The notes below the pieces were generated by a model. The model saw only the letters and a list, made by a program, of their open reading frames with translations, ran no database searches and had not been told where the DNA came from. A program made the position numbers and the translations under genes. From Schmidtea polychroa (lineage: Eukaryota), in NCBI GenBank assembly GCA_044892525.1, contig CM097885.1, positions 19,594,001 to 19,654,000 of the forward strand: a stretch of 60,000 bases of DNA. The letters run 5' to 3'. Positions within the stretch are counted from its first letter, which is position 1. Each line of letters begins with the position of its first letter. Positions 9,162-49,433 of the stretch are shown here, one piece after another.

Positions 9162-9565
9162 TGAATCAAATGTGAAATTTTCAAATGTAAGAATAAATAA
9201 AATATATAAATAAACCCTTTAGTAAAACGAATATAAATGCATAAATCGTATATCAGCGTCTGTACGAAGTTCACTCCTGATACTAAATATTTCGCTTGAT
9301 AAGGCGAGATATTGACGAGAATTGTTGTGATGTTCGAAATATTCATAAACTGAATTTGACGAAAAAACAGAAAATGATAATTATAAATAATAATTATAAG
9401 GTAGCCGCATTATTATCACGTATATTTATTATTTCTAAATACAAATAAATTAAAGTTAACAGAGTTTTCATTTTCTTCTAAGCAAATTATTTATTATTTC
9501 AACTTAGATTCAACCTCAACCCTTTTCACATCAACAAACAACATAAACCATCAAAGCAAAAACAA

Positions 9566-12500: not shown

Positions 12501-13430
12501 GCTCCATTCAACAATTTAAGTTTCCAAACACAAACCGAGAACTTAGGGGATTTCTGGGGATGGTAAACTTTTACCACGCTTATATATCAAATTTTATTGA
12601 ACTTGTAGCACCCCTAAACGACTTAAGAAAAACAATAGGAAACATCAAAATAAGCTGGACAGATGAAGCCACAAAAACTTCGAAAAAGCAAAATCATATT
12701 TATCCCAAGCTACATTACTCAGATATCCCAATCCTGAATTAGACTACACTCTCACAACAGACTGTTCTGGTTTAGCAATGGGCGCAACACTGTATCAAGA
12801 CAATGAATACGGTAAACAACCGATTGAGTTCTTCTCAAAGAAACTTAAAATACATCAAACAAGATATTCAACGTTTGATCGAGAAATCCTCGCAATACAT
12901 GAGGCAATGAAACATTTTAAACACCTACTGGAAGCAAGAAAATTCAAAATTTTCTCTGATGACAAGCCTCTAACAAATGCAATACAAATGAAAAACCCAT
13001 CACCTAGACAAATAAGACAATTAAATTATATATCACAATTTAATTGCACTATCAATTTTGAAGCTGGAGCAGCAAACATAGCGGCAGACACATTATTAAG
13101 AACAGAAATTGACATAAACTCAATCGAACTCGGCGAACTGAATGAAAGAGAAAAGATCAAAAACAAACAACAAGAAACACTAAAAGAACTACCAACAAAA
13201 CATAGCCTAAAATCAACGAATGCTGGTACGACGTCAGTAATGAAAACACACCAAGAATACTCTTACCAAAGGAATTCAGAAACAAGTGCATTTCAAAAAT
13301 GCATTAAATCAATCACCCAGGAAACAGAGCTACATACGAAATAATTCACAACAAATATATATGGTCAAATATGAGAAAAGAAATTAAAGATTTCACTAAG
13401 ACTTGCGAATTAACAAAACACCAAAAACGC
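9566..13430 (+). mobile_element. Decayed Ty3/Gypsy LTR-retrotransposon internal region (gag-pol), interrupted by a solo LTR and truncated in integrase
   Basis: gag-like KPIDFLRQL and EIKRILAV..LADIADKI; protease FLIDTDSVISLLP; RT WRTCGDYRMLN, FSKIDL, YMDDILI; RNase H PIEFFSKKL..YSTFDREILAI; integrase Zn-finger start HPG..YIWSNMRKEIKDF..TCE. Many stops and frameshifts. Confidence 0.93.
10029..11087 (+). mobile_element. Solo LTR inserted in the Gypsy gag
   Basis: TGTTG...CAACA termini with 4-bp TSD ATAT (10025-10028 / 11088-11091). Gag similarity resumes on both sides. Confidence 0.85.
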
Positions 13431-20637: not shown

Positions 20638-23600
20638 CAGGCCCGACGCTAGAGTATTTGGCGCCCTAGGCAAACTAAAAAAATGGCGCCTCTAGTCTAG
20701 AAACAAACCCAATAATTAAAGAAGTAAATGAAAATAAAATAACTATACTTCATTTATTTATTACACAAAAATATATATAAAAACAAAAACCATTTAAAAT
20801 TTAATTTTTCGTGCTTTTAGTTTAGCGAAATCTTCAAGCAGCAACTTCGTATCTATATCACGCGCCATTTCGTGTTCAATCGACAATATTGCTAATCCCA
20901 CAAGCCGTTCTTGTGACATTGTAGATCTTATATATGTTTTGATCTGTTTAAGCTTCGAAAAGCTTCGTTCACCGCTTGCCACAGAAACTGGTAGGGTTAA
21001 TAAAATTCGCAAAGCAACAAATATATTTGGAACGCTGTCCACTATATTATTTTTACAAATATAATTAAGTACATCTTCCGGCAATAAGTTTTTTGGAATA
21101 TGTCTAGCTATAAATATCAATTCGTTCAATAAATCTGTACCATCAATATCTTTAGAATCATCGTGCCGTAAAAAATTTTCCAGTTTAAGACAATCCTCTA
21201 ATATTTTCTTTGACGAAATATATTGCAAATTATGTATGTTGTATAGAAATCCAAATGTTGAATTTATCGTTGACATTTGGGTGAATCTTTGCTCAACAGA
21301 TTTTAAAGCTCTATCCAAAACTGCGAAGTAAAAGCTGATCTTAAATTTTTCTTTTGGGTTCTGAATGGGCTCATCGTTGGCTTCATATTCGAACTGTTTT
21401 TTTTGTTTTCTGATACGCTGAGTTTGTTTAAAGATTGGGGAAATTTCTGATTCTTCAGCAAGTTCTCGCGCATCTACCAATATTCTTTCAAAACCTTCAT
21501 CATTTCGGGAGTTGAATAGAAATTTTTTGGTATCTTCTAGTAGCTTCATAGCATCTTGAATATTAATTTTCTCAGATTGAAGTTGTTTGCTTGTAATATT
21601 TATGTTGAAAAGAATATCATACCAGATAATAACAGAAACTACAAACTCGAAATTCGAAATAGCTTTAGCAAGGCCCTGTGCTTCTATACGTGAAGTATTA
21701 CCAGAAACTCCTGTTTGAGAAGTATCTTGAAAAATATCAATAAGTGCAGCAATAACTTTACTTAGCTGATAGCGTAGAGGTTTAAGGGCATCGATTCGGC
21801 TCTCCCATCTTGTATCGCTCAATGGCTTCACTGTCAAGTTTGAAGCATGACGTTTTAAAACTTCCCATCGACGTGTTGAAGCGGCAAAATAGACATATAT
21901 TCGTTGCACTAACATAAAAAATGATGTAGCATCTAAACAACAGCTTACAGCGTCATTAACAACCAGATTCAAAGAATGCGCAGAACAAGGAACAAATAGT
22001 GCTCGTGGATTTAGATTCAGAATTCGCCGTTGCACGCCATTTTCTTTGCCTTTCATATTGCTACCATTATCGTATCCTTGGCCACGCAAGTTCTCAATAG
22101 GTAATGACATATCTGCTAACATCTGAACGATTTCATCGGTCATACCAGCACCAGTTGTATCTGTTAGTTTCACAAATCCCAAAAAATGTTCTCTTATGCA
22201 TATGGGATCTAAATCACAATTTTCTGTATTTGTATGGACAAAACGAATAATCAACGTCATTTGTTCAGTATGGCTAACGTCTGGTGTGCAATCCAGGATT
22301 ATTGAAAAATATTTAGCAATGGAAATCGATTTTAAAATTTTTGTTTTAATACTCTTAGATAAAAGTTGTATTAACTCATTCTGAATATCTTTTCCCAAAT
22401 AATGAACTTGTGTTTCATTGTTCTTTATTCTGCGAAGATGCTCACCCATAATTGGATCAAAAGAGGCCAAATATTCTACAAAGCTAAGGAAGTTTCCATT
22501 TCCAGGAGAATACAATTTTTCATTGCTTCCGCGAAATGCAATATTTTGCGTAGCAAGCACTTTAACTAGACCTATAAGACGCTCTAAGACTTGTTGCCAG
22601 TGTCTCTCTTCTTGTTTTATGAGACGCAAATTATCCTGGTCAATAGTTTTATTCTTTTTTAAACGCAATTCTAGCTCCTTCCAAGTTTGAAAATTAATTA
22701 AATGATCCTTATTTTTCTCATGTCTTTCTAAAATTACAGACATATTTTTCCAATCGCTTGATCCTTTATCGGAGAGATGTATTACACGCTGGTTATTATT
22801 AAAAATTTTGCAACAAAAGCAGAAAGCCGAATTAGTTGTTTTGGAATACTGTAGCCAATGACGCCGCATTTCTTCTCCATTTGCAAGTCTCCTTCTATAA
22901 AAATTCATTGAAAATTTTCTATGGCTCTCATTTTGAGGAAAATCAAATTCTTCAATTTGTTCTGGTCCGTGTTCAACCAAAATTTGCCTCAAACGGCCAG
23001 AACGTAAGTCATGTGAATTTAACCAAGTTGCCGGATCACTATAATCAAGACTCGAATTTACGCTTTCTAATATTTCCAAAGTTTCATTAATTAAAATTTC
23101 TTCAGTGTCTTCTATAGTTTCTAATACAATTTCTTCTATAGGTTCTTCAACAGTTTCTTCAATTGTTTCAACTTCAGTTTCTTCTATAGTTTCTTCCACA
23201 TTCGTATGTGGAAACTCAGTCAAAATAGGCACCTCTGCATTTCTAGTTGTAGAGTTCCTATCCATTTGCTCTTCCAAATTGCAGTATACTTGTTTTCTCG
23301 GAGTCATTTCATTTCGATTTTTATCTTGTGATTGTTGACGACAAATATATTTCAGAAAAGCACCTTCTTGCTTTTTTTCTTCATTTTTCTTTTCAGCTTT
23401 ACGTTTTCTATTTTGTGCGCCAGATAATTTTTTTCTATCTGCCATTATGCTACCTCAAGTAAAAATTAATAGAATATAATAGATTTAATAATAGGTGTAG
23501 AAAAATCCAATATAAATTAAATTACTGTGTTGTATATATGTAAAAATTATACTGGAAGTACGACCGAAATTATATATACTTTAAATAAAAAAAATTTGAG

Positions 23601-25675: not shown

Positions 25676-26689
25676 ATTTAGATCTAGGAAAGTTAAATAT
25701 TAATAAATTGGAGAGGTATACAAAAAGCCTCGCATATCATACAATGCGTAAGACACCGAGGTTTAGAATCTATAAAGATTCACATAATGATATAAGGAGT
25801 CAAACTTATATTAGTCATATAGAGAATGTTAAAACCAATCTTTCAAAATATGGACCTTTATTTCTTGAACGAATAGAAGCTTATTACATACTATCACTGT
25901 TTACCTTTGATATGTTTGGTGTTATTAATAAATGTTCTAGTAGGATTTGGTTTCCAGATATTGAGCGTTCTTTTTGATTAAACAACAAGAAACACAACAA
26001 TTAGTAAGTTGATTTTCTTTAATATAACAAATTCACTGGATCAGCCATTATCCACACTCTTAAATGAATTGGGTTAGTTTTCCAACATTAAATTACTCAC
26101 GTAACACTTCGAACGGTTGATGACTTGGTGAAACCAACAATGTCTCGTCCGAGACTTCTGTAATTTTACTGGTTTCGCTATAAATCCTCTCTAATTTTTG
26201 GCTTCTCGCTATTTTTCATTATCCGTTTTATTTTTGTCCCTGTTTTTTTATCATGCATGTAGTAGGCAAGTCAATTATTTACTAGGATTTGAGCAGTGAA
26301 TTACCAATCTAAATTAGCATTCATTTTTTAAACTTTGATCTAATAACGAAAATATTTACCGATCTCTACAAAGATTATATATTTGGATAATATTTGACAT
26401 TTTCGTGTTTCATTAGAAAAAAATAAAGGATTTTAAAAATGTATTTTTAAAATATTTTTCCGGTATAAAATGGGATTCATCTTATCGCTGGAGTCATTTT
26501 ATATTCTAGCTAATACGGTAACTATTTAATTAGTTTATATTTTAATTTTTAGGCCACTGGGTTTGTGTCGATGTTAGTAGATGGATTGGGCACCGCTGGC
26601 ACAGGACACCGCTAGCACAGTACCCCCCTCCCCCCTCCCCCCGTCGGTAAGATTTTCAAAAATATTCTAAGTCTAAAAGTACATTTTTT

Positions 26690-27215
26690 TTCAAGGTCAA
26701 ATTTAAACAAAGACATATGACTCATCAAGGTCATTGAAACAAAGACCATGACTCATAGTATGACTCATCAAATTTTTCAAGGGCATTTAAACAAAGACCA
26801 TGACTCATCATATGACTCATCAAGGTCATTTTCAAGGTCATATGACTCATACTAAGACTCATCAAGGTCAAAAAAATTTCTCAAGGTCATTTTAACAAAG
26901 ACCGTGACTCATCAAGGTCATTTTCAAGGTCATATGACTCATACTATGACTCATCAAGGTCATTGAAACAAAGGCCATGACTCATGATATGACTCATCAA
27001 GGTCATTCTCAAGGTCATATGACTCATAATATGACTCATCAAGGTCATTCTCAAGGTCATATGACTCATCCGATGACTCATCAAAATTTTCAAGGTCATT
27101 TTCAAGGTCATCTGAGTCATCCTATGACTCATCAAGGCCATTTTCAAGGTCACATGACTAATCCAAGGTCATTCCCAAGGTCATATGAGTCATCGCGATG
27201 ACTCATCAAGGTCAT
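26690..27215 (+). repeat. TGACTCA / TCAAGGTCA minisatellite, left arm (mirror at ~39530-40060)
   Basis: Dense irregular array of ATGACTCAT and TCAAGGTCA words. Confidence 0.95.
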
Positions 27216-27349
27216 ATTATTATTTTTAAAAAATATTATTAAGTGTGCTAGCGGTGCCCTACTATTTGGCATGCCAAAAGTTATCGTTCCCATCATTTTA
27301 TTTCATCGTTCGATAGCTTGTTTTGAAGCTTGGTGCAAGACCTTTCGAA

Positions 27350-27575
<226 letters not shown>

Positions 27576-27685
27576 TATTAATCTATATACTCCGAGTCTA
27601 TCCGACAAAAATATTCTGTCCCCCTATGGGTACTGCTCACGCTCAATAACTCGCATTCGATTATTTTATTATTATTCGATTATTA

Positions 27686-28870
27686 TATTATTATTTTTCA
27701 AAATATTATTATTTTCAAGGTCATATTATTATTTTTCAAATTATTATTATTTTCAAGGTCATATTATTATTTTTCAAATTATTATTATTTTCAAGGTCAT
27801 ATTATTATTTTTCAAAATATTATTATTTTCAAGGTCATATTATTATTTTTCAAAATATTATTATTTTCAAGGTCATATTATTATTTTTCAAAATATTATT
27901 ATTTTCAAGGTCATATTATTATTTTTCAAAATATTATTATTTTCAAGGTCATATTATTATTTTTCAAAATATTATTATTTTCAAGGTCATATTATTATTT
28001 TTCAAAATATTATTATTTTCAAGGTCATATTATTATTTTTCAAAATATTATTATTTTCAAGGTCATATTATTATTTTTCAAAATATTATTATTTTCAAGG
28101 TCATATTATTATTTTTCAAAATATTATTATTTTCAAGGTCATATTATTATTTTTCAAAATATTATTATTTTCAAGGTCATATTATTATTTTTTCAAAATA
28201 TTATTATTTTCAAGGTCATATTATTATTTTTCAAAATATTATTATTTTCAAGGTCATATTATTATTTTTCAAAATATTATTATTTTCAAGGTCATATTAT
28301 TATTTTTCAAAATATTATTATTTTCAAGGTCATATTATTATTTTTCAAAATATTATTATTTTCAAGGTCATATTATTATTTTTTCAAAATATTATTATTT
28401 TCAAGGTCATATTATTATTTTTCAAAATATTATTATTTTCAAGGTCATATTATTATTTTTCAAAATATTATTATTTTCAAGGTCATATTATTATTTTTCA
28501 AAATATTATTATTTTCAAGGTCATATTATTATTTTTCAAAATATTATTATTTTCAAGGTCATATTATTATTTTTCAAAATATTATTATTTTCAAGGTCAT
28601 ATTATTATTTTTCAAAATATTATTATTTTCAAGGTCATATTATTATTTTTCAAAATATTATTATTTTCAAGGTTATATTATTATTTTTCAAAATATTATT
28701 ATTTTCAAGGTTATATTATTATTTTTCAAAATATTATTATTTTCAAGGTCATATTATTATTTTTCAAAATATTATTATTTTTCAAAATATTATTATTTTC
28801 AAGGTCATATTATTATTTTTCAAAATATTATTAATTTCAAGGTCATATTATTATTTTCAAGGTCATATTA
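27686..28870 (+). repeat. 38-bp tandem repeat, about 30 copies (left arm)
   Basis: Unit TCAAGGTCATATTATTATTTTTCAAAATATTATTATTT. Period checked at 27791, 27829 and 27867. Confidence 0.95.
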
Positions 28871-29573
28871 TTTTTGTTTTAATTATCGATTATTTAATAA
28901 TTTAATTTTGTTTAAATCGTTGATTATACAATAATATTTTTATTTTTTCTTTTAATTGTAAATTATGTAATAATTAAATTTTGTTTAAATCGTTGATTAT
29001 ATGATAATATGTTTATTTTTGTTTTAATTATCGATTACTTAATAATTTAAAATTGTTTAAATCGTTAATTATATAATAATATTTTTTTTGTTTTAATTAT
29101 TAATTATGTAATAATTTTATTTTTTTAAATTGTTGATTAAATGATAATATTTTGTTTTTGTTTTAATTATCGATTACTTAATAATTTAATATTGTTTAAA
29201 TCGTTAATTATATAATAATATTTTTTTTGTTTTAATTATTAATTATGTAATAATTTTATTTTTTTAAATTGTTGATTTTATGATAATATTTTTATTTTTG
29301 TTTTATTTATCGATTACTTAATAATTTAATATTGTTTAAATGGTTAAATATATAATAATTTTTTTTTGTTTTAATTATCAATTACGTAATAATTTAATTT
29401 TGTTTAAATTGTTGATTTTATGATAATATTTTTATTTTTGTTTAAATTATCGATTATGTAATAATTTAATTTTATTTAAATCGTTGATTATATTTTTTTT
29501 GGTTTATTATCGATTACGTAATAATTTAATTTATCATTATTATTGGGAAAGAACGCCCGCGCGGAAGATTACA

Positions 29574-29674
<101 letters not shown>

Positions 29675-29907
29675 GATTATTATTGCAAATCTTCATAAAA
29701 CTTAATTTCTACGTCAATTTCATGATTTTCAACATTTTCATCATTTGCATATTTTAATAATTTTTAATATTTTCATAATTTTTTCCATTTTCAGTATTTT
29801 CATTATTATTTCAGGAACATTTTAATTAGTTACATGAACATTTACATCAAATATTTTTCAAAGTAATATTTCCGTTCAGTTTTTCAAAGTTCTTCTTCTT
29901 CTTATTC

Positions 29908-29974
<67 letters not shown>

Positions 29975-31116
29975 GATTATTATTGCAAATATTCATGAAA
30001 CTTAATTTCTACGTCAATTTCATAATTTTCACGATTTTCAACATTTTCACGATTTTCAACATTTTCATGATTATTATTTTTTCATTATTATTTTCAAAGA
30101 ATTATTTTCAAAGAATTATTTTCAAAGAATTATTATTATTATTTTTTATTATTATTATTATTTTTATTATTATTTGCAAAGTTCTAATTATTATATTAAT
30201 TTAGAAGTTTCATTATTATTATTTACTTAAATATTCATAAAACTTATTTTCTACGTCAATTACATGATTTTCAACATTTTCATCATTTGCATGAATTTTA
30301 ACAATTTTCTACATTTTCAATATTTTCACGATTTTCAACATTTTCATGATTATTTCAGGAACTATTCATCGAATATTTTTCAAAGTATTATTTTCAAAGA
30401 ATTATTTTCAAATTATTTTCAAAGTTTTTATCAATATTATTATTATTATTATTATTTGCAAAGTTCTTATTATTTTATTTTCGATGTTTTATTATTATTT
30501 ACTTAAATATTCATAAAACTTAATTTCTGCATCAATTTACGATTTTCAATATTTGATGATTATTTTAGGGAACATTTTCATAATGTTTAACGTTTTCATC
30601 CTTTTCAATATTTTCATCATTTTCAACATTTTTAATATTTTCAGGAACATTTTCATAATTTTCAACGTTTTCATGATTTTCAACATTTTCATCATTTCCT
30701 TGAATATTTTAATAATTTTCAACATTTTCATAATTTTCACGATTTTCAATATTTTCATCATTATTTTCTTCAAAATTCTTAGTTTATTTATAAAATATTA
30801 TTATTATCATTTTCAAAATTATTTTCTTATTATTTATTTTAAAGTATATTATTATTTTTATTATTATTATTATATATACTCCTAGTCTATCCGACAAAAT
30901 ATTTTGTCCCCCTATGGGTACTGCTCACACTCAACAGGTTGCAAGGGTACTAGTCATGCTTATTATTATTGTTATACAATATGATGTTATTTAGACATTT
31001 GAAGGTTCAACCATGGTTACAATTTCTACATTTTGAAAACTCTAATTTGATTGGCTATCTCAATTTTTATAAATGTAAAAACAAAAGTAATTTAGTTATT
31101 AAGAAATTTATTACTG

Positions 31117-31753
31117 ATGATTTCTACAAATAAAACTGTTGAATATGTAAATCACAAAACACATTTGGTAACTTTATTATTTTGTCAATATTTTTTATAT
31201 ATGTCATTTATAGCAAGGAAGAAATAAGGAAAAATTAAGTCCGACCGATTCCGAAATTTCAATGAAATTTTTTAACAACACAGTTGAAGATTTTATAAAT
31301 AATCATGATACTTACAGTGATAAGCAACTCATAAATATTTTAAAGATTTTCAAACATTCCTCTATTGAATATTTGTTTGATTTATTTAATTATGAGAAAT
31401 CCATTTTAAAGTTATCTTGTTATTTAATGTACTTAGAAAAAATAGCAGTAAACAATGATTCACTGAATGAATACTTTTGGAGTTGTATGTTTTTAAGGTT
31501 GAAACCTGGATATAGTAGATTGATTTATGATTGGATAGCAAAAACCGATTTGATTGAAAATAAGCTAACGAAAAAACTGAGCGATGTTAAGAAAAGGTAT
31601 TTAACTTGCTCAATTTGTAAAGAAAATCAAGTTTCGGTTTTGTATTTACCGTGTGGTCAAGTAATTGTTTGTTCTAAGTGTCACGAGAAGAATGTTCGCA
31701 ATTGTCAAGCCTGTTTAATACTGATTAATGAATATCATACTATATACATGTAA
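31117..31753 (+). CDS. Two-exon protein (~196 aa) with a C-terminal IAP/Mdm2-type RING finger, left-arm copy
   Basis: Exon 31117-31167, GT-AG intron 31168-31213 (46 nt), then an in-frame exon 31214-31753. C-terminus CSIC..VLYLPCGQVIVCSKC..CQAC...IYM*. ATTGG and TATA-like boxes upstream, AATAAA downstream. Confidence 0.75.
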
Positions 31754-34700
31754 GTTCTCAATACAAATAAATACAATATCAAAGTCAAATGAATTATTAA
31801 CATACATAATGACGGTACTATAATGTAGGAAATTTTCAAACATTGAATAATATGAAATCAGCTTGGTAATTAATTATATTGGGCGCAACTACCAAATGTT
31901 GATGATATGATGAAGGGAATGGTATTTATAATATTATTTTAAGATTATTCAAAATGAAATATAACCATGAGTTCATCAAAATGGAAAAAGATCTTCGCAA
32001 GAACCATGAAGATGCTGGATGTATTGGTTATTATTTTTTCGGAAATAAATGTTTTAATTTGTTTTTATAAATTTATTGTTTTATTGTAATACTTTTTGAT
32101 TAAAACATATTCATTTTGTTTTAATATTTGTATTAATTTTTTTATATAGTGTTATTTATATATATGGAAATTTACAATTATATATACAATTATATTTACA
32201 ATTATTATAAATCATAATGACTAAATGATGCTTTTCTTCTGTCCATTGATTTTCCTCTGATATTACTGCCATAATCATCTTCGACAAAATGTAAAGATAA
32301 TATTTCTAGTGTCTTTGTTAATTATGCCCATTTATTGCAAAGTCTTTGTTAATTATGCATTTGTATTGCAAATTTATTAGTTATACAATTATATTATTTT
32401 TTCATTCCCTGACATAATATTATTATTTTTAATTTTATTATTTTGTTTAACAATACCATATAGCAAATTTTTAGGCAATTTGATAAATAGTACATGGTTA
32501 TTTTAAATATATAGCAATTTCTTAAGTAAAATATTTCCAGATAAATTTAAAAATTTAGTTAGAAATCCATGGTTTTTGGCTATACCATTTAATTAAAATA
32601 TTCTTGGATTCATAACATTTCTTTTATATAGTTGATAGTAATACCAATTATCTCAATTATTTTACTAGAAACATAACTGAATTCTTAGTTAATATAGTAT
32701 TTTTGTGTATTTTTTAGTTAATTTATAAATATTATCTGACATATTGATGTATCAATGCAATATACAACAAATTACTCAATAAAAACCATAGCATATTGTA
32801 ACTTTTTATATAAAGTCTGAATTTATCCGACAATATATTTTGTCCCCCTATGTATATTTGTCGTAAGGGTACTGGTCACATGTCGCAAGGGTATATTAAT
32901 TAAAGCACATGTATATTAGTTAAAAATTCTTAGGTAATTTAGTGAGAAATGGATCATCATAGATATCAGAAATTCGTGAATAATTTGAATATTTTGAATG
33001 TAACTTACCGAATTCTCATTTCGAGCGTCTAATTTATTGGTTAACGTTGTCATGTTTAGTCATTTAATATAATATTTAGCAAAAGGTAAGATATGAATAT
33101 TTAGTATTTCATAGGTAATTTATTCATCTAATGTTCATTACAATAGTTAATATAACTTCGTGAGAAATGCATGGTTATTAATATATTCATTGATAATTTT
33201 GGTAGAAAATCTTTATCATTTGGAGTAAATTTCTATCTTTGTTTGAGGCAAAAGGAGTCATAATAGAAACATGATCATTTGTTATCAATTTACCAATTAA
33301 GGTGCTTATTAGTTAGAAATATAGGGTTACAATTTTTTCTAATTTAATGAGATGATCATTGGGTGTAATATATCTTATACATGGTTAACATTTTTAAATA
33401 GGGATTTTGAGTAACTTTTACCAAAACAGGGATATTTTGTGCGATCAATTTATGAATATTGGTTAATTTTCTCTTTTTTAGTCATTTAAAATAATATTTA
33501 ACAAAGGTAATTTAGCAAAATATCATTGAAAGATTTATCCATCCGATAACAATATTCCTTCCCTTTACCCTTAATATTCAACCGATTTAATTTCTAGAAA
33601 TCTAATTAAAATCATAAAATATTTTCAATAAAGATCAATTTTCTTTAGCTGTTGTCGATTTCCAACTTTTAAGTCAATATTTCTCAAGTTTTGTCACAGA
33701 TATCCCCACAATGAATAAAATAACTTCTTAAATAAAATAATTTAAAGCAATAACCTTTGATATCAATCCCAATTAATTCTAAAGATTTCAAATATTTCAT
33801 TGTCAAAACCAAGTAAATTGATCATTAACCCTAAACGACTTAATAAAACAGTGGATAATTAATAAAAACTGGTTCTAAAACCTAATATTACTGTGCCATA
33901 ACATTCATCACAACCTAATAAAACGATATAATTTCACAGGAACGATTATTAATTCATAGCTAAATACTGACTATGTCCCTTTGATATTTTACCAATAAGA
34001 ACATTGTCGATTTAAATAGAGATTTCAAACATTTCCGCCTTAACCGATCCCTCACTAAATATTTCTACCCCATTAAATACCTCCTTTAAAAATCATATAT
34101 TACCATCTTAACTGAACCTTCACTAAATCCAACCGACTTTAATATATCAATTCTCTTAAAATCCATAGAAAATTCTTCAAAATATGAATTTTATTTAATT
34201 GTTACAGACATCCTTCCATTGAAATAATTTAGTATCTAAATTCATGTAGTAAGAGCCCACTAAAAGATCACTAAAATCAATATTTTCTACAAATATTTCA
34301 CCACATTTACCATCAAATACCTAACTAGAAATGAAATATATTGATCATAATTCTTCATCGATTCAGCCAATTATAGCAATTATATCTTTCAAATCACAAA
34401 TTTCAGTATATTTTACAATAATTTTCAAGTAGATTTCAAATATATCATCATGATAAAATTAGCTGGTTTCAACTTTAGATTTTCAATATTTAAAAGTTCA
34501 TCAATATTCGTAGAAAATATATGAAAGAATTATTTTGTCAATATCATTACAAAGTCATCATAAAAATTAAATAATAATCACTTGATTATTGTAAAAACTC
34601 TAATTATTAACCTAACTGTCATTAAAAATAATTTTTATTTAAAATTAAATTTAAAAACAAGTCAATAAAATATAGCAAATTATCAAGAAATTAATTAAAT

Positions 34701-35883
34701 TTGTCTTAGAATTAACACTAAAACCTTAAATTTTTAAATATTCTTTCAATTATTCACAAAAAGGTTAGTAATAATGTTAGTAAAATCCCGCTAACTCTAA
34801 AAATTACCAATGAATTTAATGCTAATTAATAACCAAAAATTTGCCTAAATAAAATCATTAAAACACACCAGTACCTTTACGACCAGTACCCTTACGAGCA
34901 GTAGCAATTGTGAACAGTACCCATAGAGGGAGAAAATATCTTGTCGGATAAACTCATAGTATATATAATAAAACGAATTAACAATAACTCCATCAAATTG
35001 AATCAGTCAAATTAACACAAATTTTGATAAAAAATCTTATTCTAAAATGGTAAGAAGCGTAAAGTCGAACGATAATTTTAATAACACAGAGATAAAATTA
35101 ACAATATTATATTCTCAGGTGGTAAGAATCTTCAAATAACCATGTACTATTTATCAAATTGCCTAAAAATTTGCTATATGGTATTGTTAAACAAAATAAT
35201 AAAATTAAAAATAATAATATTATGTCAGGGAATGAAAAAATAATATAATTGTATAACTAATAAATTTGCAATACAAATGCATAATTAACAAAGACTTTGC
35301 AATAAATGGGCATAATTAACAAAGACACTAGAAATATTATCTTTACATTTTGTCGAAGATGATTATGGCAGTAATATCAGAGGAAAATCAATGGACAGAA
35401 GAAAAGCATCATTTAGTCATTATGATTTATAATAATTGTAAATATAATTGTATATATAATTGTAAATTTCCATATATATAAATAACACTATATAAAAAAA
35501 TTAATACAAATATTAAAACAAAATGAATATGTTTTAATCAAAAAGTATTACAATAAAACAATAAATTTATAAAAACAAATTAAAACATTTATTTCCGAAA
35601 AAATAATAACCAATACATCCAGCATCTTCATGGTTCTTGCGAAGATCTTTTTCCATTTTGATGAACTCATGGTTATATTTCATTTTGAATAATCTTAAAA
35701 TAATATTATAAATACCATTCCCTTCATCATATCATCAACATTTGGTAGTTGCGCCCAATATAATTAATTACCAAGCTGATTTCATATTATTCAATGTTTG
35801 AAAATTTCCTACATTATAGTACCGTCATTATGTATGTTAATAATTCATTTGACTTTGATATTGTATTTATTTGTATTGAGAAC

Positions 35884-36520
35884 TTACATGTATATAGTAT
35901 GATATTCATTAATCAGTATTAAACAGGCTTGACAATTGCGAACATTCTTCTCGTGACACTTAGAACAAACAATTACTTGACCACACGGTAAATACAAAAC
36001 CGAAACTTGATTTTCTTTACAAATTGAGCAAGTTAAATACCTTTTCTTAACATCGCTCAGTTTTTTCGTTAGCTTATTTTCAATCAAATCGGTTTTTGCT
36101 ATCCAATCATAAATCAATCTACTATATCCAGGTTTCAACCTTAAAAACATACAACTCCAAAAGTATTCATTCAGTGAATCATTGTTTACTGCTATTTTTT
36201 CTAAGTACATTAAATAACAAGATAACTTTAAAATGGATTTCTCATAATTAAATAAATCAAACAAATATTCAATAGAGGAATGTTTGAAAATCTTTAAAAT
36301 ATTTATGAGTTGCTTATCACTGTAAGTATCATGATTATTTATAAAATCTTCAACTGTGTTGTTAAAAAATTTCATTGAAATTTCGGAATCGGTCGGACTT
36401 AATTTTTCCTTATTTCTTCCTTGCTATAAATGACATATATAAAAAATATTGACAAAATAATAAAGTTACCAAATGTGTTTTGTGATTTACATATTCAACA
36501 GTTTTATTTGTAGAAATCAT
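35884..36520 (-). CDS. Mirror copy of the RING-finger gene, right arm
   Basis: Identical 163-aa translation in the ORF track (35884-36375), with the mirrored first exon at 36470-36520. Confidence 0.75.
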
Positions 36521-37662
36521 CAGTAATAAATTTCTTAATAACTAAATTACTTTTGTTTTTACATTTATAAAAATTGAGATAGCCAATCAAATTAGAGTTT
36601 TCAAAATGTAGAAATTGTAACCATGGTTGAACCTTCAAATGTCTAAATAACATCATATTGTATAACAATAATAATAAGCATGACTAGTACCCTTGCAACC
36701 TGTTGAGTGTGAGCAGTACCCATAGGGGGACAAAATATTTTGTCGGATAGACTAGGAGTATATATAATAATAATAATAAAAATAATAATATACTTTAAAA
36801 TAAATAATAAGAAAATAATTTTGAAAATGATAATAATAATATTTTATAAATAAACTAAGAATTTTGAAGAAAATAATGATGAAAATATTGAAAATCGTGA
36901 AAATTATGAAAATGTTGAAAATTATTAAAATATTCAAGGAAATGATGAAAATGTTGAAAATCATGAAAACGTTGAAAATTATGAAAATGTTCCTGAAAAT
37001 ATTAAAAATGTTGAAAATGATGAAAATATTGAAAAGGATGAAAACGTTAAACATTATGAAAATGTTCCCTAAAATAATCATCAAATATTGAAAATCGTAA
37101 ATTGATGCAGAAAATAAGTTTTATGAATATTTAAGTAAATAATAATAAAACATCGAAAATAAAATAATAAGAACTTTGCAAATAATAATAATAATAATAA
37201 TATTGATAAAAACTTTGAAAATAATTTGAAAATAATTCTTTGAAAATAATACTTTGAAAAATATTCGATGAATAGTTCCTGAAATAATCATGAAAATGTT
37301 GAAAATCGTGAAAATATTGAAAATGTAGAAAATTGTTAAAATTCATGCAAATGATGAAAATATTGAAAATCATGTAATTGACGTAGAAAATAAGTTTTAT
37401 GAATATTTAAGTAAATAATAATAATGAAACTTCTAAATTAATATAATAATTAGAACTTTGCAAATAATAATAAAAATAATAATAATAATAAAAAATAATA
37501 ATAATAATTCTTTGAAAATAATTCTTTGAAAATAATTCTTTGAAAATAATAATGAAAAAATAATAATCATGAAAATGTTGAAAATCGTGAAAATGTTGAA
37601 AATCGTGAAAATTATGAAATTGACGTAGAAATTAAGTTTCATGAATATTTGCAATAATAATC

Positions 37663-37744
<82 letters not shown>

Positions 37745-37962
37745 GAACTTTGATAAACTGAACGGAAATATTACTTTGAAAAATATTTGATGAAAATGTT
37801 CATGTAACTAATTAAAATGTTCCTGAAATAATAATGAAAATACTGAAAATGGAAAAAATTATGAAAATATTAAAAATTATTAAAATATGCAAATGATGAA
37901 AATGTTGAAAATCATGAAATTGACGTAGAAATTAAGTTTTATGAAGATTTGCAATAATAATC

Positions 37963-38034
<72 letters not shown>

Positions 38035-38629
38035 TTAATAATAATAATAATAAAATTAATAATTGTAATCTTCCGCGCGGGCGTTCTTTCCCAATAATAA
38101 TGATAAATTAAATTATTACGTAATCGATAATTAAACCAAAAAAAAATATTATCATAAAATCAACAATTTAAACAAAATTAAATTATTACGTAATTGATAA
38201 TTAAAACAAAAAAAATTATTATATATTTAACCATTTAAACAATATTAAATTATTAAGTAATCGATAATTAAAACAAAAATAAAAATATTATCATAAAATC
38301 AACAATTTAAAAAAATAAAATTATTACATAATTAATAATTAAAACAAAAAAAATATTATTATATAATTAACGATTTAAACAATATTAAATTATTAAGTAA
38401 TCGATAATTAAAACAAAAACAAAATATTATCATTTAATCAACAATTTAAAAAAATAAAATTATTACATAATTAATAATTAAAACAAAAAAAATATTATTA
38501 TATAATTAACGATTTAAACAAAATTTAATTATTACATAATTTACAATTAAAAGAAAAAATAAAAATATTATTGTATAATCAACGATTTAAACAAAATTAA
38601 ATTATTAAATAATCGATAATTAAAACAAA

Positions 38630-39015
38630 AATAATATGACCTTGAAAATAATAATATGACCTTGAAATTAATAATATTTTGAAAAATAATAATATTTTGA
38701 AAAATAATAATATGACCTTGAAAATAATAATATTTTGAAAAATAATAATATAACCTTGAAAGTAATAATATTTTGAAAAATAATAATATGACCTTGAAAA
38801 TAATAATATTTTGAAAAATAATAATATGACCTTGAAAATAATAATATTTTGAAAAATAATAATATGACCTTGAAAATAATAATATTTTGAAAAATAATAA
38901 TATGACCTTGAAAATAATAATATTTTGAAAAATAATAATATGACCTTGAAAATAATAATATTTTGAAAAATAATAATATGACCTTGAAAATAATAATATT
39001 TTGAAAAATAATAAT
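38630..39015 (-). repeat. 38-bp tandem repeat, about 10 copies (right arm)
   Basis: Reverse complement of the 27686-28870 unit, as a much shorter array. Confidence 0.95.
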
Positions 39016-39142
39016 ATAATAATCGAATAATAATAAAATAATCGAATGCGAGTTATTGAGCGTGAGCAGTACCCTTGTGAGCATTACCCATAGGGGGACA
39101 GAATATTTTTGTCGGATAGACTCGGAGTATATAGATTAATAC

Positions 39143-39286
<144 letters not shown>

Positions 39287-39312
39287 TAATAATAATAATA
39301 ATAATATAATAA

Positions 39313-39354
<42 letters not shown>

Positions 39355-41394
39355 CAATAACAATAAATTCGAAAGGTCTTGCACCAAGCTTCAAAACAAG
39401 CTATCGAACGATGAAATAAAATGATGGGAACGATAACTTTTGGCATGCCAAATAGTAGGGCACCGCTAGCACACTTAATAATATTTTGAAAAAATAATAA
39501 TAAAAATAATAATATTTTTTAAAAATAATAATATGACCTTGATGAGTCATCGCGATGACTCATATGACCTTGGGAATGACCTTGGATTAGTCATGTGACC
39601 TTGAAAATGGCCTTGATGAGCCATAGGATGACTCAGATGGCCTTGAAAATGACCTTGAAAATTTTGATGAGTCATCGGATGAGTCATATGACCTTGAGAA
39701 TGACCTTGATGAGTCATATTATGAGTCATATGACCTTGAGATGACCTTGATGAGTCATATCATGAGTCATGGCCTTTGTTTCAATGACCTTGATGAGTCA
39801 TAGTATGAGTCATATGACCTTGAAAATGACCTTGATGAGTCACGGTCTTTGTTTAAATGACCTTGAGAAAATTTTTTTGACCTTGATGAGTCTTAGTATG
39901 AGTCATATGACCTTGAAAATGACCTTGATGAGTCATATGATGAGTCATGGTCTTTGTTTAAATGACCTTGAAAAATTTGATGAGTCATACTATGAGTCAT
40001 GGTCTTTGTTTCAATGACCTTGATGAGTCATATGTCTTTGTTTAAATTTGACCTTGAAAAAAAATGTACTTTTAGACTTAGAATATTTTTGAAAATCTTA
40101 CCGACGGGGGGAGGGGGGAGGGGGGGGGGTACTGTGCTAGCGGTGCCCTGTGCCAGCGGTGCCCAATCCATCTACTGATGTTAAATTCTAACTGGATTAA
40201 GAAGTTTTTGAGGCTCAGGTATTTTTGTATATAGAATAATGATTTCGGGCTTTTTAACTAGATTTTGGCTATCGCTTAAAAACAGGGTTTTATATAAATT
40301 TGAAATTCTAACTATAGTAAGGGGTGTTTTGAAACTCAGATATTATTATACAGTAATTATAGTCTGAAGCTTTTCAATTCGCAAAGAAGGGTTTGTAGCA
40401 TATTTGGTCATGGACTGTTTGAATAATTAAATTTAGGGTAATATATTTGACAATTAGCAAATCAACATTGTGTATAAATTCACCTAAGTAACATATTTTG
40501 AATAATTATAAGTTGTTTACTTTGTTGTACTTTTTTATTGCATAAAGATAGTTTGCTATCATAATATTTTGATCAGAATCTACTAACCACTATTGAATAT
40601 ACATAAGCTAAGTGTTAGTCACAGAACTTCTGGTATTAATTGGATCCATTAAAAAATCAATATTTTGAATACAACGTTTTATTATTTAATCACAATAGTA
40701 TTTAAACAAATCACATCATAATTTGTTTGGAGTTTCTATAAAAAACAATTAATGAATAAGTAAGGATTTCAACATACAGACAACATACAATAATAATTTA
40801 ATTTATATTTTAGAATACCTCACAATAAGAGTTTAATTTAAAGCAATTATTTTACTTGCAATTAATTCATCTAAATTTACATATTCACATTTATGTAATT
40901 ATTTACCTGATTTTATTAGACAACCCTTATTACAATTAAATAAAATTGAATAATTATTTCTTTTAAATAATTCATATTTAGGGTGAATATTTACTTGATT
41001 GTTAATGGCTAGAATTTAATGCTCTTTTGTTATCCATTTTGCTCACTAAATACCTTTTCATGATATTTATTGGCAATGTTTTGAATAAATTTATTTTAAA
41101 TATTTATTTGTACTTGTTATTTTACAAAGATTTTCTGTATTTGAATTCAAGAATGAAGAATTTTACTAATCATTATCAAATTATTGGAACATCTCACAAG
41201 AAATGATGTCCTTAAGTTCAATCAATCACTATAATTTCTATTAATTCTTTCATCAATGAGTATCATCTTCGTAAGTATATATTTGAATACTGAACTCTTT
41301 CTTTATTTATTTTATTCAAAAATGAACCAGAATTTCAATCTCAACAAATTTTATCAAAGATCTATCAAATTTATTTAGTGATTCACTCTTAACA

Positions 41395-43356
41395 TCATAC
41401 TTCAGTTACCTTAACCAAAGTTTTCTGTAAATCTTTCTTCACAGCTTTCTCATTCATTAGAAATTTTCCAATTCGTCTCTTTCGATCACCTTGCAACTGC
41501 ATGTTATTTATCAGTGTAAACGCCACTTGCCATTTCTTTACGTTTTTCCTTGTTGATTCCATTTGTGATTTTAGTTTATTTTTATTCACTTTATATCTTA
41601 ACAATCTTTTGCTTTCTAAGTGCTTTTCTTTCAAAATATCAATGAAACATTTTATGATAGGGTTTTGATGGTACTGCAGGGTATAGAGGAACCCAATATA
41701 GCTCATGAAACCGCTATCAAAATTATGCAAATAGATTGGCAAACAATTAAAGTCAATTCTAGAGAAACAAAACACAAAGTTAAACATCCAAATAATCATT
41801 CGCTTTATTGAATTGAAAAATCCCATCATCACATTCAGAAAGAAGGCACAATGTGCAAAAATCATGAATGCTCTTCGGTTGTTGATTTCCATTAGGGTTC
41901 CTCTTTTCGTTACAAAACAAAATCTAACGATCGCACTTTGAACTACTATCAAAACAATTGACTCTACTATAAGGGGAAATGAATGCAAAAAAAGCTTTCT
42001 GATCCAAGAATTTTCCAGAAATATCAAAGGCAGTAAGATTATCCCAATCGTTATAAATAAAAAGAGAAACATAAATATTGTAACAACAATTATCCCCCAC
42101 AATATGTAGGCAGCTTGATAGCCGCTATACCTCACGAAACCCGATACCAATTCAGCACTATCTGGAGCCTTTCTCAGTGCAATAATTGATGAAAATCCTT
42201 GTTTGCTGATTTTCTGGAAATGGAGGCGAAAATTCCTCAAAATGAAGAATGATTGAATGACGGAGTTGAGAAATCCCACAATGAATGCAAATATTAAACA
42301 ACATAACAGAAGATTTACGTAAAAAAACGTTAAATATCTGTAGGCGTTCACCGAATCAGCAGCCGAATATTGAGAAAGATTACCTGAGGTCACTCGAAAA
42401 GCAGTTTTCAAATCTAAATCAATTTCATTAAACCTTTTATTCAACAAATAAATGAAGGTCCACATTTCTGGGGTAAATGAAATAATTAGCTCCATGAAGA
42501 TTCGATAAGCAAAATATAATCCAACCGATATCCCAACTGCCATTAAAGGAGGAATTTCGAAACCGGAAATTTCCACATGCCTGATAGCTTTTTTGTTGTT
42601 TTTTTTTTGATTCTTTCTGCTTAATAGTTCCTTGACGTATTGCCTACTGTCCTTATCGATGCAATGAATGAACTCTGATTTCTCAATGTTTTTCAATTTG
42701 TTTCCTTGGACATGCTTGAATATTTTCCATACAAATATTATAATCAAAACTAAATCATTTGCTAAACAAACAATATGGATGATAGAAAATGGAATGGTGT
42801 CATATGCGATAATACAATTAACATTTTCATAGACCAATCCCAAATTGCAGCACATCAAAAGAACGGAAAACATTAATCCCATGCAATAGCCAATCAAATG
42901 CTTTGCGCAAATTCCCGCAAATATTGGATAATAAGTTATCGAAAATACAATTACATATCCTAATTTAATTAGAAATTTCACATTCGGTTCTTGCAGTTCG
43001 TGAGCTTCATAAATAAAAATGGCTTTATAAATATCTTCGGAAAACGAGAGAAAAGCAATAACATACGCGTACCTGTTTTCACAGCTGTTTATCATATCCA
43101 TCGGTACCGCCAATCCTGGTCGGCCATGGCATGAATTGATTTGGAATGATACCCGTTTCGTTACAAATGCAAAAATGATAATAAGTATCACAGAAAAAGT
43201 CAAAAGCAAATAGGATACTAATGAAATCCGTACCGCGTTGATGGGACAAATAATTTGATTAGTATCGTTTAGATCTCTTTCTCCCGAGCTAACCATTGCA
43301 AATATTTCCATAATAGGTCCACCGATATACTCGGTATATTTCATGAATTCTTTCAT
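41395..43356 (-). CDS. STRA6-like: STRA6/STRA6-like paralogue 2, 653 aa, intronless
   Basis: Same family motifs: GRPGLAVP, YSGYQAAYILWG, NNRRAF, HQNP, KWQVAFTLINN. Confidence 0.88.
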   Translation of the reverse strand: MKEFMKYTEYIGGPIMEIFAMVSSGERDLNDTNQIICPINAVRISLVSYLLLTFSVILIIIFAFVTKRVSFQINSCHGRPGLAVPMDMINSCENRYAYVIAFLSFSEDIYKAIFIYEAHELQEPNVKFLIKLGYVIVFSITYYPIFAGICAKHLIGYCMGLMFSVLLMCCNLGLVYENVNCIIAYDTIPFSIIHIVCLANDLVLIIIFVWKIFKHVQGNKLKNIEKSEFIHCIDKDSRQYVKELLSRKNQKKNNKKAIRHVEISGFEIPPLMAVGISVGLYFAYRIFMELIISFTPEMWTFIYLLNKRFNEIDLDLKTAFRVTSGNLSQYSAADSVNAYRYLTFFYVNLLLCCLIFAFIVGFLNSVIQSFFILRNFRLHFQKISKQGFSSIIALRKAPDSAELVSGFVRYSGYQAAYILWGIIVVTIFMFLFLFITIGIILLPLIFLENSWIRKLFLHSFPLIVESIVLIVVQSAIVRFCFVTKRGTLMEINNRRAFMIFAHCAFFLNVMMGFFNSIKRMIIWMFNFVFCFSRIDFNCLPIYLHNFDSGFMSYIGFLYTLQYHQNPIIKCFIDILKEKHLESKRLLRYKVNKNKLKSQMESTRKNVKKWQVAFTLINNMQLQGDRKRRIGKFLMNEKAVKKDLQKTLVKVTEV

Positions 43357-45173: not shown

Positions 45174-45671
45174 CTAACAATGACAAAATAACTTTAAAAA
45201 AAATAATAATAATTGTTTAAATCTAAGACACATCAGAAGAATTTCATTGTAATTAATATCACACGCTTTATTTGTAAAAAACCATTTATCGTGTCCAATA
45301 ACTTGAGATTGAGCCATGATTGAATTTGAAACATTGGATAATTGTTCAACACTTCGGCTAATAAACATTGGGGTTGTGTTGATCTTTTTAAAAGCTCGAT
45401 TGAATAGAATATCATATCCATAAGTTAGCAAGTTTATCTTTTTATCGCTTTGGGGAAATTTCATAAACATATCTTGGAGTTCCTCTTCTGTTATTTCATG
45501 ATTTACAGAAATTAAATCGTTGATTTCCGATCGTTTTGAAAAACTTCCATTAATAATTTGCAACGATCTTGCTGAGCCACGATCACATGGACAAGTTCCA
45601 CTGCTGAAAAGACATCTCTTCGTTATATTGCTCATTGAAATACAACATATCAAACATTCATTATCTTCCAT
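45174..45671 (-). CDS. Hypothetical 165-aa ORF with an N-terminal CxxC, probably a decayed mobile-element gene
   Basis: ATG-initiated ORF (MEDNECLICC...) next to pPolB remnants. Family not recognised. Confidence 0.3.
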   Translation of the reverse strand: MEDNECLICCISMSNITKRCLFSSGTCPCDRGSARSLQIINGSFSKRSEINDLISVNHEITEEELQDMFMKFPQSDKKINLLTYGYDILFNRAFKKINTTPMFISRSVEQLSNVSNSIMAQSQVIGHDKWFFTNKACDINYNEILLMCLRFKQLLLFFLKLFCHC

Positions 45672-46834
45672 ATTTCACTAAGGCCAAAAATTCAAATCAA
45701 AATTATAAATCAGTTCTTTAAAACCACAATTCCAGAAAAATTGAATAGAATATCATATCCATAAGTTAGCAACACTCTAAAAAACCGATACAATCATAAA
45801 CTGAGTAAAACCAAAAAAAACTCACAATAACTTTGACTAAATTCCACAATTGTCCGCGTCTGTGTGCGCACACAATTCAAATCAACAAAGTAAAAAGCGC
45901 ACACATACGCGAGATAAACTAATAATTTGACAATTGTCCGCGTCTGTATGTGCACACAAATCAAATCCAAAAAACAGGTAAAAAGCGCACACAGACGCGC
46001 GACCCGATAATCAACCAATAATAATACTAACATTTTGACTTCAAATCGGAATGTGATTCATCCACAGTGCGGGCATCCCTAACAGAAGAGGGGCATATTC
46101 CACTTCCTCCCTTATAGGGGCATCCCCAATATCAGCGAAGGCATCAATTATTAGACAATAACCTAAAGTTTTTGTAAATTTAATAACTAAATAAAATAAA
46201 TTTACTTAATGATTCCTCAACAGAAGTAGGGACATGATCTGGTATCTCTCCAATGTCAGTTGACCATAATCTTCTGAATCACTAATGGGTTGACTATTCA
46301 AATTTTTTAGAATTTATAGTAATTAAATAAATAAATTTAACTAATAAATCTTTTTCGATAATAATGACGTCATATTCGTCGTATTCATCAGTAATAATAA
46401 CTTCATCTTCAGCACGCAAAAGATTTTCGGTTATCTCGTACCATAAATTCTCTAAAATAATAATAAATAAAAACAATAATAAAATAAATAAATAACTTAT
46501 CATTAGCACCCGTCAACATGGCACGTAGGATATTATTTTGTCCGTTCATTTTGAAAAATAATTTTTAAAAGTGACGAATTTGGAAATCGCAAATGTTTAT
46601 AAAGAGAATGAAATTTTTCCTGTCCCAGCCATTCAGAATTTAGCTATACACACATAGAAACTATGCATGCCTTGTTAATCATGCAGTATTTTCCTTGTGA
46701 CTGTCCTCATTAATCATGACTTTGTTGAACATGCACTGAGCATGCATCGACCATGTGATGTCTTTGTCGACATTAATACTATAATTAAAAATAATAATAA
46801 AATTAATTAAAATAATAATAATAACAAAGCATTT

Positions 46835-48541: not shown

Positions 48542-49433
48542 TTATAAAAGAATAAGATACTTTTATATTGTTTAATTATCTTCTATATTTTTGCCGAAAT
48601 AACCTTTTGAAAATTTCGAACTTCCGGGTTACAGTGAGATAAAACAATATCTATCTATTGGTGTATCTTATTGTAAATGTCTAGTAAATTTGTCTATTCC
48701 TACAGTCGTCAAATAAAAATTAATTAATTTATTAGTTTATATATTTTCAACATCTTTCGCTTCTTGTTTATTATCGACCTATACGTTTCCCCATTAAATA
48801 TTGATTTTTCGAATTTTTTTACTTGTTTTTTCATTTAAATTTGATTTGTAAATTTTTAGAAAAAATTTGTGTATTTAAGTTTTGTGTATTTAAGTTTTAC
48901 TTCAACAATAATCTCGGAAGTACGCTTGAAAAGAAAATGCATGTTACTAAAAAATTAATTTAAATTGATAAATACTGAAATATTTCGGGATCACTTATAA
49001 GAGTCTCATGACTCCTTCGAAAGCCGTAGTTCATTGTAGAATAAATAAATATTTTACATAATATAAAGTGATGATTTCTTGGTAGCAGCATTAATTAAAT
49101 TTAAACAATTAAATAATAATTTAAGACTTTTGCTGCGAGTAATATATTTAATACAAATGAAAAAAATTTCGACTATAAAATTGAAATAGGCTATCTTATA
49201 ATTTAAAATTTTTCCATTTGTTTTAAATATATTATTTGCAGCAAAAGGCTTAAATTATCATTTATTTGTTTACTTTTACATAATATTTTCAATTAAATAT
49301 TAAATGCAAATAATTTTATAAAGTATATAAAAAGTTTAGATGTCAGTTAGTGAACTTTGTACTGGATTTTGTTACACTACACATTTTATCTAAAAAATAA
49401 TAAATTTATATAATTTAAATACCTGACATTTCA

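Follow-up and report, generated by a model that had tools for sequence, protein, structure and literature searches.

Background

Mavericks or Polintons (also polintoviruses, adintoviruses) are described in the portions of PMC8097293 available to us as elements with a 6-bp target-site duplication for a hallmark and with accessory regions as a general feature; intact vertebrate Mavericks are reported there with no introns seen (for general background see also the accessible part of PMC6431247). Section 3.2 of Starrett et al. (PMC8502044) describes adintovirus homologs of Bcl2 and of the inhibitor of apoptosis (IAP) proteins. As set out in the part of PMC6349121 at hand, the helix preceding the RING and an aromatic residue of the C-terminal tail form the dimer of cIAP1 and prime E2~ubiquitin. 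Here we analyse a stretch of 60,000 nucleotides from Schmidtea polychroa (GenBank assembly GCA_044892525.1, contig CM097885.1, positions 19,594,001 to 19,654,000, forward strand; hereafter the window, in whose coordinates all positions without a contig or locus name are given), which carries a 13.6-kb near-palindromic element with a RING gene in each of its two inverted arms. The best explanation overall, to which we assign a probability of roughly 0.8, is that this gene is a conserved accessory gene of autonomous (helper) Mavericks, predicted to encode a RING ligase of IAP type devoid of BIR domains, and that the two copies in the window are likely passengers of a palindromic element.

Results and discussion

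The gene in the window

The following features make up the gene:

31117-31167, plus strand: predicted exon 1 of the left copy, 51 nt or 17 codons, starting with the ATG at 31117
31168-31213, plus strand: predicted phase-0 GT-AG intron of the left copy, 46 nt
31214-31753, plus strand: exon 2 of the left copy, with a helical domain (residues of about 51-96 weakly UBA-like), a linker helix, the IAP-type RING (residues 132-167) and the tail IYM
31658-31660, plus strand: codon of the fourth zinc ligand in the left copy, Gln here and His in nearly all other copies
36520-35884, minus strand: right copy, identical to the left one (exon 1 36520-36470, intron 36469-36424, exon 2 36423-35884)
32044-32068, plus strand: possible poly(A) signal (AATAAA at 32044) and site, where a contig of sequencing run X2 has a loose end with an A-run behind 32068 (a weak indication, X2 not being shown to be RNA)

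Re-reading the sequence bears out what the original prediction had said of the gene's position, the 46-nt GT-AG gap, the predicted spliced product of 196 aa and its end IYM*; the unspliced frame ends after 36 codons. The two copies are indeed convergent and identical (0 differences across 637 nt), and the gene, claimed as the only substantial intact coding sequence of the element, is the sole non-repetitive open reading frame (ORF) of at least 100 aa within 26576-40176. In Pfam, exon 2 matches zf-C3HC4_3 with 30.2 bits (cut-off 27), and neither the window protein nor any of 19 aligned relatives matched a BIR domain. The variants PCGQ and CQAC and the position of the RING at the extreme C-terminus are likewise as first described; the ligand pattern is C3HC4, with Gln as fourth ligand, so that the full set of eight ligands is not present. 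The spacing had been called IAP/Mdm2-like, of which the IAP half holds and the Mdm2 half does not, since no Mdm2 occurs among 36 sequence matches in the PDB (E<=1).

A single RING gene in autonomous Mavericks

Several elements with the same ends as that of the window hold a 1,350-aa polymerase, the relatives of which carry PF03175, together with an ORF of integrase and chromodomain (rve below the Pfam cut-off) and an A32-type ATPase above the cut-off. Two further conserved ORFs of 426 and 360 aa are of a size compatible with capsid proteins, and Pfam and PHROGs yield no capsid match for them. Helper elements also carry a TBP-like ORF (L032:5244-5705; PF00352, 57.5 bits). Full-length elements have one RING gene, placed downstream of the polymerase gene and directed outward, towards the terminal repeat; in 12 of 13 further loci (L158-L170) it adjoins pPolB.

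The sequence behind the stop codon comes in two types, a helper-type flank with 253 matches in the genome (control 6) and a palindrome-type flank with 1,029 (control 0), and it is this 3' flank that defines autonomous and palindrome context in what follows; the samples of both contexts are the first 30 places on contig 1 and not random draws. Among the first 30 helper-type places exon 2 is open in 28 and all eight ligands are kept in 27, one of these with a changed acceptor. Open copies with eight ligands thus number 27 of 30 in autonomous context versus 3 of 28 in palindrome context (Fisher p 8e-10, for copies that are not independent). In 25 helper-type copies, three local duplicates having been dropped, the variants common to at least two copies comprise 19 synonymous and 27 non-synonymous changes (ratio of non-synonymous to synonymous polymorphism, pN/pS, 0.32; binomial p 3e-4), and common changes fall on codon positions 3, 1 and 2 in the numbers 17, 8 and 5; for singletons the counts are 9 and 25 (pN/pS 0.63, p 0.17). 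The core genes of the same elements, compared between elements, give 0.07-0.53. Taken from these sequence comparisons, the RING gene is a conserved standard accessory gene of autonomous Mavericks (at least 253 copies), evidently under purifying selection. The original prediction had proposed a dN/dS check on maintenance of the gene by the window's own element: selection is seen in the autonomous lineages (about 0.3), and that maintenance is not.

RING-gene units also form tandem arrays with a period of about 1.03 kb at C1:8.681-8.731 Mb (L132, L133), C1:9.012-9.016 Mb (L136, L137) and C4:84.026-84.029 Mb (L143), the longest with about 49 copies by span, and 19 of 19 units read are open. The unit ends in an (AAT)n tract, and since in helper elements this tract lies on either side of the gene, unequal crossing-over is a likely source of the arrays. 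A further array at C1:242.72-242.77 Mb (L140-L142) has a 2.2-kb unit made of terminal repeat and a broken RING copy. The idea that such arrays are a selected gene accordion is not supported, as this last one amplifies a broken copy.

Depth of conservation and the question of a host origin

Besides that of the helpers above (lineage A), three further lineages were found in the genome, B with 70-72% identity, D with 46% and C with 38% (E 7e-36), all four of which keep the eight ligands and a tail ending in Y-[MIV]. Between A and B dN is 0.161 and dS 0.49 (0.123 and 0.67 in the RING part); deeper pairs are near or at saturation. Lineage B belongs to a second Maverick family (L152-L157, L172, L173, L177-L179), where the RING gene lies near TBP-like and ATPase genes. 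A search of 1.84 billion representative sequences returned 8 proteins at E<=1e-10, several of them covering the N-terminal region; the names of 10 relatives looked up were not informative. Word-index protein searches gave one relative for the window protein and none for the 38% relative, metagenome contigs no match to the gene, and the ESM Atlas no usable match for residues 15-125.

The gene might also have been taken up from the host recently, or stem from a family of domesticated host genes that the element has spread. It has a predicted intron, unlike the vertebrate Mavericks covered in the accessible part of PMC8097293, and the 38% relative, found once in a 25-mer search, is open beside broken neighbours and matched by contigs of two runs guessed to be RNA. 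That relative, however, lies just downstream of a broken pPolB (the position the gene has in lineage A) with a piece of an integrase next to it; such a piece is also near the 46% relative, and there is no copy in host context among the best 150 of 2,180 candidates. The 38% relative is therefore rejected as a host donor gene, sitting as it does inside an old Maverick, and a recent capture or a domesticated host family is in our judgement very improbable; an old origin from an animal IAP is likely. Two old relatives, L147 (C3:20,314,263-20,314,915) and L171:4504-5022, have open frames and eight ligands beside broken Maverick genes, L147 matching contigs of two runs guessed to be RNA; from their sequence, domestication of these two is possible.

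Evidence for the intron

Exon 1 measures 42, 51 or 57 nt in nearly all copies in which it was found (one has 50), and the intron ranges between 41 and 50 nt with no tie to multiples of three. Phase-0 GT-AG introns occur at the same place in lineage C (48 nt) and in lineage D (45 nt). As exon 1 varies in multiples of three while the intron does not, and C and D have introns too, we regard the predicted intron as real with high confidence. Two observations speak the other way: in lineage B the frame, of 185 aa, has a Met of its own and apparently lacks an intron here, and the intron is crossed unspliced by one contig of X1, a run not shown to be RNA. No spliced joint at the intron is among the joints listed for contigs of runs X1, X2 and X7, guessed to be RNA. 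Intron and exon 1 may instead have been over-called, exon 2 being read from an internal Met, as it is in one database gene call; the missing joint and the frame of lineage B would agree with this. The internal Met, however, is Leu in 5 of 25 sampled copies, and both the length pattern of exon 1 and the introns of C and D would go unexplained, which leaves an over-call improbable. An apparent dip in depth at the intron vanished on a better-matching copy.

The carrier is a deleted palindromic Maverick

The carrier has the following parts:

26570-26575: left target-site duplication, GATGTT, the same 6-mer as at 40177-40182
26576-40176: non-autonomous, near-palindromic element of Maverick/Polinton type, 13.6 kb, with ends AGTAGA..TCTACT, assigned by the counts of its terminal 21-mer and by ends shared with core-gene elements
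26576-32506, plus strand: left inverted arm, comprising the terminal repeat of Maverick type, tandem arrays rich in AT, the RING gene and its 3' flank
30884-30935, plus strand: copy, joined in this element to the gene's 5' flank, of the motif by which the inner end of the Maverick terminal repeat is marked
32507-35130: unpaired spacer, copies of which are 98-99% identical elsewhere and mostly in inverted pairs
35131-40176, minus strand: right inverted arm, from the comparison of the arms
40177-40182: right target-site duplication, GATGTT, matching the left one

Across the 781-Mb genome the 21-mer of the element's end is present 1,241 times in forward and 1,284 times in reverse orientation (control 0), and 10 of 10 other pairs of ends, chosen from the list of its matches, have a 6-bp target duplication. 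The AG..CT terminal inverted repeats as well as the 6-bp duplication of Mavericks/Polintons are present at 26576 and 40176; these ends, the duplications and the core genes in elements with the same ends lead us to assign the carrier as a Maverick/Polinton derivative. Within 26576-40176 no pPolB, integrase, ATPase or capsid gene was found, and the element is accordingly not an autonomous Maverick. The motif of the terminal repeat's inner end lies downstream of the RING gene and on the opposite strand in autonomous elements.

The ungapped core of the arms (29489-32506 and 35131-38148) has 17 differences in 3,018 nt. Ten sister palindromes were chosen from the list of spacer matches; they are near-complete palindromes, 13-19 kb long in the cases with both ends found, and each has a centre of 242-990 bp outside the core that was compared. 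Three of them have matched 6-bp duplications, one has mismatched ones and six are without one or both detectable ends. In the sisters the DNA of the window's spacer sits in both arms, and by this comparison the window's element has lost the inner part of its right arm. The carrier belongs to a large family of Mavericks/Polintons that are palindromic and non-autonomous, and is a member with a deletion.

In the spacer (32507-35130) there is no Pfam match and no coding excess over shuffles. A by-eye impression of a decayed leucine-rich-repeat gene was discarded, as there was no Pfam match and no helper-gene match and stop counts were like those of shuffles. The interior of the palindrome (31760-35130) has short internal repeats, and the only counterpart among the fetched helper stretches is the terminal-repeat motif (32824, 34950). 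The terminal repeats at 26687-27215 and 27664-28870 contain many TGACTCA-type repeats and a 38-bp tandem array with unequal copy number in the two arms.

Why there are two copies

The arms of 8 of the 10 sisters differ by 0-6 bases over 2.6-4.2 kb, and the elements differ among themselves by 0.12-1.34%. The RING gene is found in 18 of the 20 sister arms and is broken in all 18, the breaks often being identical in both arms. Of the first 30 palindrome-type places, leaving aside the two of the window, 22 of 28 are broken or truncated; three of the six with exon 2 open are without the seventh ligand, a cysteine, and exon 1 was found in just one of the remaining three. An independent palindromic derivative, unrelated to the RING palindromes as far as its sequence tells, is the Maverick L047/L048 (C1:29,602,228-29,617,439), with a 6-bp duplication and with ATPase, TBP-like and neighbouring genes duplicated in inverted arms. 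Since other genes are doubled in this way as well, and since breaks of the RING gene are common to both arms, the doubling is a property of the carrier, and the two copies are likely a by-product of its copying rather than a sign that two are useful. A helper would replicate the element by fold-back, protein-primed synthesis, a model drawn from arm identity alone; one arm would be copied from the other, and everything in it, breaks included, would be doubled. The two RING copies of the window would then be passengers in a non-autonomous palindromic derivative of helper Mavericks.

Some observations fit this less well, namely arms that differ by 27-30 bases in 2 of the 10 sisters, and the 6 of 28 copies in palindrome context that keep exon 2 open, with a pN/pS of common variants of 0.44. 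The open copies and this ratio suggest that the palindrome lineage was once under constraint or has been refreshed by recombination.

Why the copy in the window is open

One further feature bears on the state of the window's copy:

31192-31628, plus strand: tract identical to a helper copy, 437 bp with 0 mismatches to the autonomous-family copy L102

Five palindrome-type copies each differ from the tract at more than 20 places, and outside it, in exon 1 and at the 3' end, the gene of the window is of palindrome type. A 35-mer at the 3' boundary of the tract has 26 exact matches, and the whole tract stands in palindrome context solely in the two arms of the window. The frame is therefore probably open because the 437 bp came from a helper copy in one event of recombination or gene conversion. 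The mosaic allele, being identical in both arms, can be taken as a record of exchange between helper and satellite followed by copying from arm to arm, and fits the fold-back model.

The motif around the fourth ligand has 1,113 matches, and among the first 100 listed 98 have His, the other two being those of the window. The Gln codon occurs at 6 places in the genome, two of them in broken copies, and a second palindrome likewise has Gln in both arms with open frames. With His invariant in 19 of 19 aligned relatives, Gln is not a feature of the family, and this sequence record suggests that the change from His is a lesion that probably cripples the window's copy. A one-off exchange with a helper and this point lesion, in either order, would explain the locus.

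On the view of the original prediction the palindrome keeps two working copies for the sake of a ligase or decoy that helps the element; Gln would then make the protein a functional decoy. The open frame and intact splice sites in both arms, the roughly 1,029 copies in palindrome context, the second palindrome with Gln and open frames, and a run guessed to be RNA that holds palindrome-type alleles with their 3' flank are what one would expect from it. Against it are the 18 of 18 broken copies in the sisters and the 3 of 28 intact ones in the positional sample, an allele that has not spread (2 of the 26 boundary matches, both in this insertion), and the distribution of Gln and His just given. 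Frequent stops in other copies are thus what was found, and the notion that the gene is maintained by this element, or that selection keeps two copies of it, is already largely refuted; we hold it to be even less probable than a recent host capture.

Predicted function of the helper protein

By profile comparison the best solved relatives of the RING are those of cIAP2, cIAP1 and XIAP (E 1e-15 to 1e-12) and BIRC7. The helix before the RING is kept, and the Tyr of the tail aligns with the tail Phe of XIAP and cIAP, which upholds the earlier reading of an IAP-type RING ending in a tail as in dimerising IAP RINGs; on this alignment the domain is classed as an IAP-type RING with an aromatic C-terminal tail. 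Residues 51-96, compared by hhalign with UBA-like segments of 11 BIR proteins, score 20.75 (E 0.001; none of 40 controls above 11.8), the G-F/Y loops falling on each other in the alignment, and the N-terminal helical domain thus weakly resembles the UBA domains of IAPs. Pfam UBA is not matched in 19 family members. Structure models reached a mean pLDDT (predicted local distance difference test) of 38.6 alone and 43.3 with a low-diversity alignment of 10 sequences, too poor to judge the fold; Foldseek on the low-pLDDT model found nothing at E<=0.001, and a dimer prediction made without alignment, on an uncertain monomer fold, scored 0.00, neither of which is evidence either way.

If the gene is functional, we would moderately favour a BIR-less, IAP-derived dimeric ligase of modest activity that acts on a host factor or on host IAPs. 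The helper version would dimerise through its RING, the Tyr of the tail priming E2~ubiquitin in the manner of cIAP and XIAP, and a helical domain derived from UBA would stand in for the BIRs; the protein would attach ubiquitin to a host factor or form pairs with the RINGs of host IAPs, with no direct block of caspases. Two points count against this. At the linchpin, after the last Cys, the window's copy has Leu, lineages A and B have Ser and D has Gly, and the UBA match is weak (probability 21.6), the segments compared having been picked by that very motif. A linchpin other than Arg predicts weaker and not necessarily abolished activity, XIAP being active without Arg according to the available part of PMC12326332, and in lineage C, the oldest, the linchpin is Arg.

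The same residues could mean that the helper protein is a non-catalytic RING adaptor or a dominant-negative partner of host IAP RINGs. That it is BIR-less, has a non-Arg linchpin in A, B and D and a degenerate UBA loop, and keeps the dimer helix and the tail would suit an adaptor, and RING heterodimers with an inactive scaffold are described in the part of PMC12326332 consulted; the activity of XIAP, the Arg of lineage C and the good alignment of the E2-facing RING residues with cIAP RINGs weigh on the other side. We consider an adaptor rather unlikely, and a catalytic ligase the better reading of the helper protein.

A broader proposal is that a Maverick lineage keeps a spliced BIR-less IAP derivative (UBA-like and RING) in at least four families, the product pairing with or degrading host IAPs or a silencing factor. 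With more than 1,280 copies, arrays of ~49 copies and helper-satellite exchange, it would regulate host cell death or transposon control in a way that varies with dosage. We put it forward as a speculation that we doubt more than the adaptor. Piwi-guided silencing of Polintons is reported for a planarian in the accessible part of PMC8532177, with no link to the RING protein here.

Other genes in the window

Elsewhere in the window lies a cluster of intronless STRA6-like genes at 7230-9218 (minus), 41395-43356 (minus), 49419-51401 (plus) and about 59066-60000, the first matching RBP_receptor with 260.8 bits and the members being 64-82% alike at the DNA level. An open hAT transposase of 886 aa is found at 20794-23454 (minus), retrotransposon-like pol pieces were seen by eye at 11630-13344 (plus), and a weak Helitron-like piece below the Pfam cut-off lies at 45174-45674 (minus).

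Comparison with known systems

The locus as flagged matters little, being a passenger whose change is likely crippling. The gene itself is of value in that it marks a host-interaction function that an animal Maverick lineage would have kept; it is small and expressible alone, and its natural alleles differ at a zinc ligand and at the linchpin, which makes the target accessible to ordinary biochemistry.

For animal Mavericks, neither a spliced RING gene lacking BIRs nor palindromic satellites were found in the literature searched by titles and the beginnings of abstracts, a scope outside which most subscription papers and Repbase lie; the texts of PMC11131425 and PMC11414722 yielded nothing further. 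With Mavericks/Polintons the present system shares the AG..CT ends, the 6-bp duplication and, in the helpers, core genes for pPolB, integrase and ATPase with accessory genes on their flanks, while the window's element differs as a coreless giant palindrome, and the accessory gene differs in its predicted intron.

Protein-primed linear replicons such as adenovirus undergo panhandle repair and give rise to palindromic defective genomes, whose inverted arms are near-identical through copying. Unlike these, the products considered here integrate with 6-bp duplications, and their mechanism is proposed from arm identity only.

The IAP RINGs of cIAP1, cIAP2, XIAP and BIRC7 (PDB 6hpr, 3eb5, 4ic2, 4auq) have in common with this family the C3HC4 spacing, the helix before the RING, the C-terminal position of the RING, the aromatic tail and possibly a UBA domain; the family differs in its mostly non-Arg linchpin and degenerate UBA loop, and the window's copy in the missing His ligand. 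Having no BIR, the protein is by definition not an IAP but likely works like an IAP RING, as far as its sequence allows such a judgement. The RINGs of MYLIP/IDOL, MEX3C, MUL1 and CGRRF1 also have a zf-C3HC4_3 near the C-terminus and are weaker matches (E 1e-8 to 1e-5 by profile), and their N-terminal domains are different from that of this family. The RING of Mdm2/MdmX has the ligand pattern C2H2C4, unlike that of the window.

IAP homologs in Polintons were already known, by comparison with the text of section 3.2 of PMC8502044; what appears to be new here, on sequence grounds, is the retention of the gene by four Maverick lineages, at identities as low as 38% and in three of them with a phase-0 intron of 45-48 nt.

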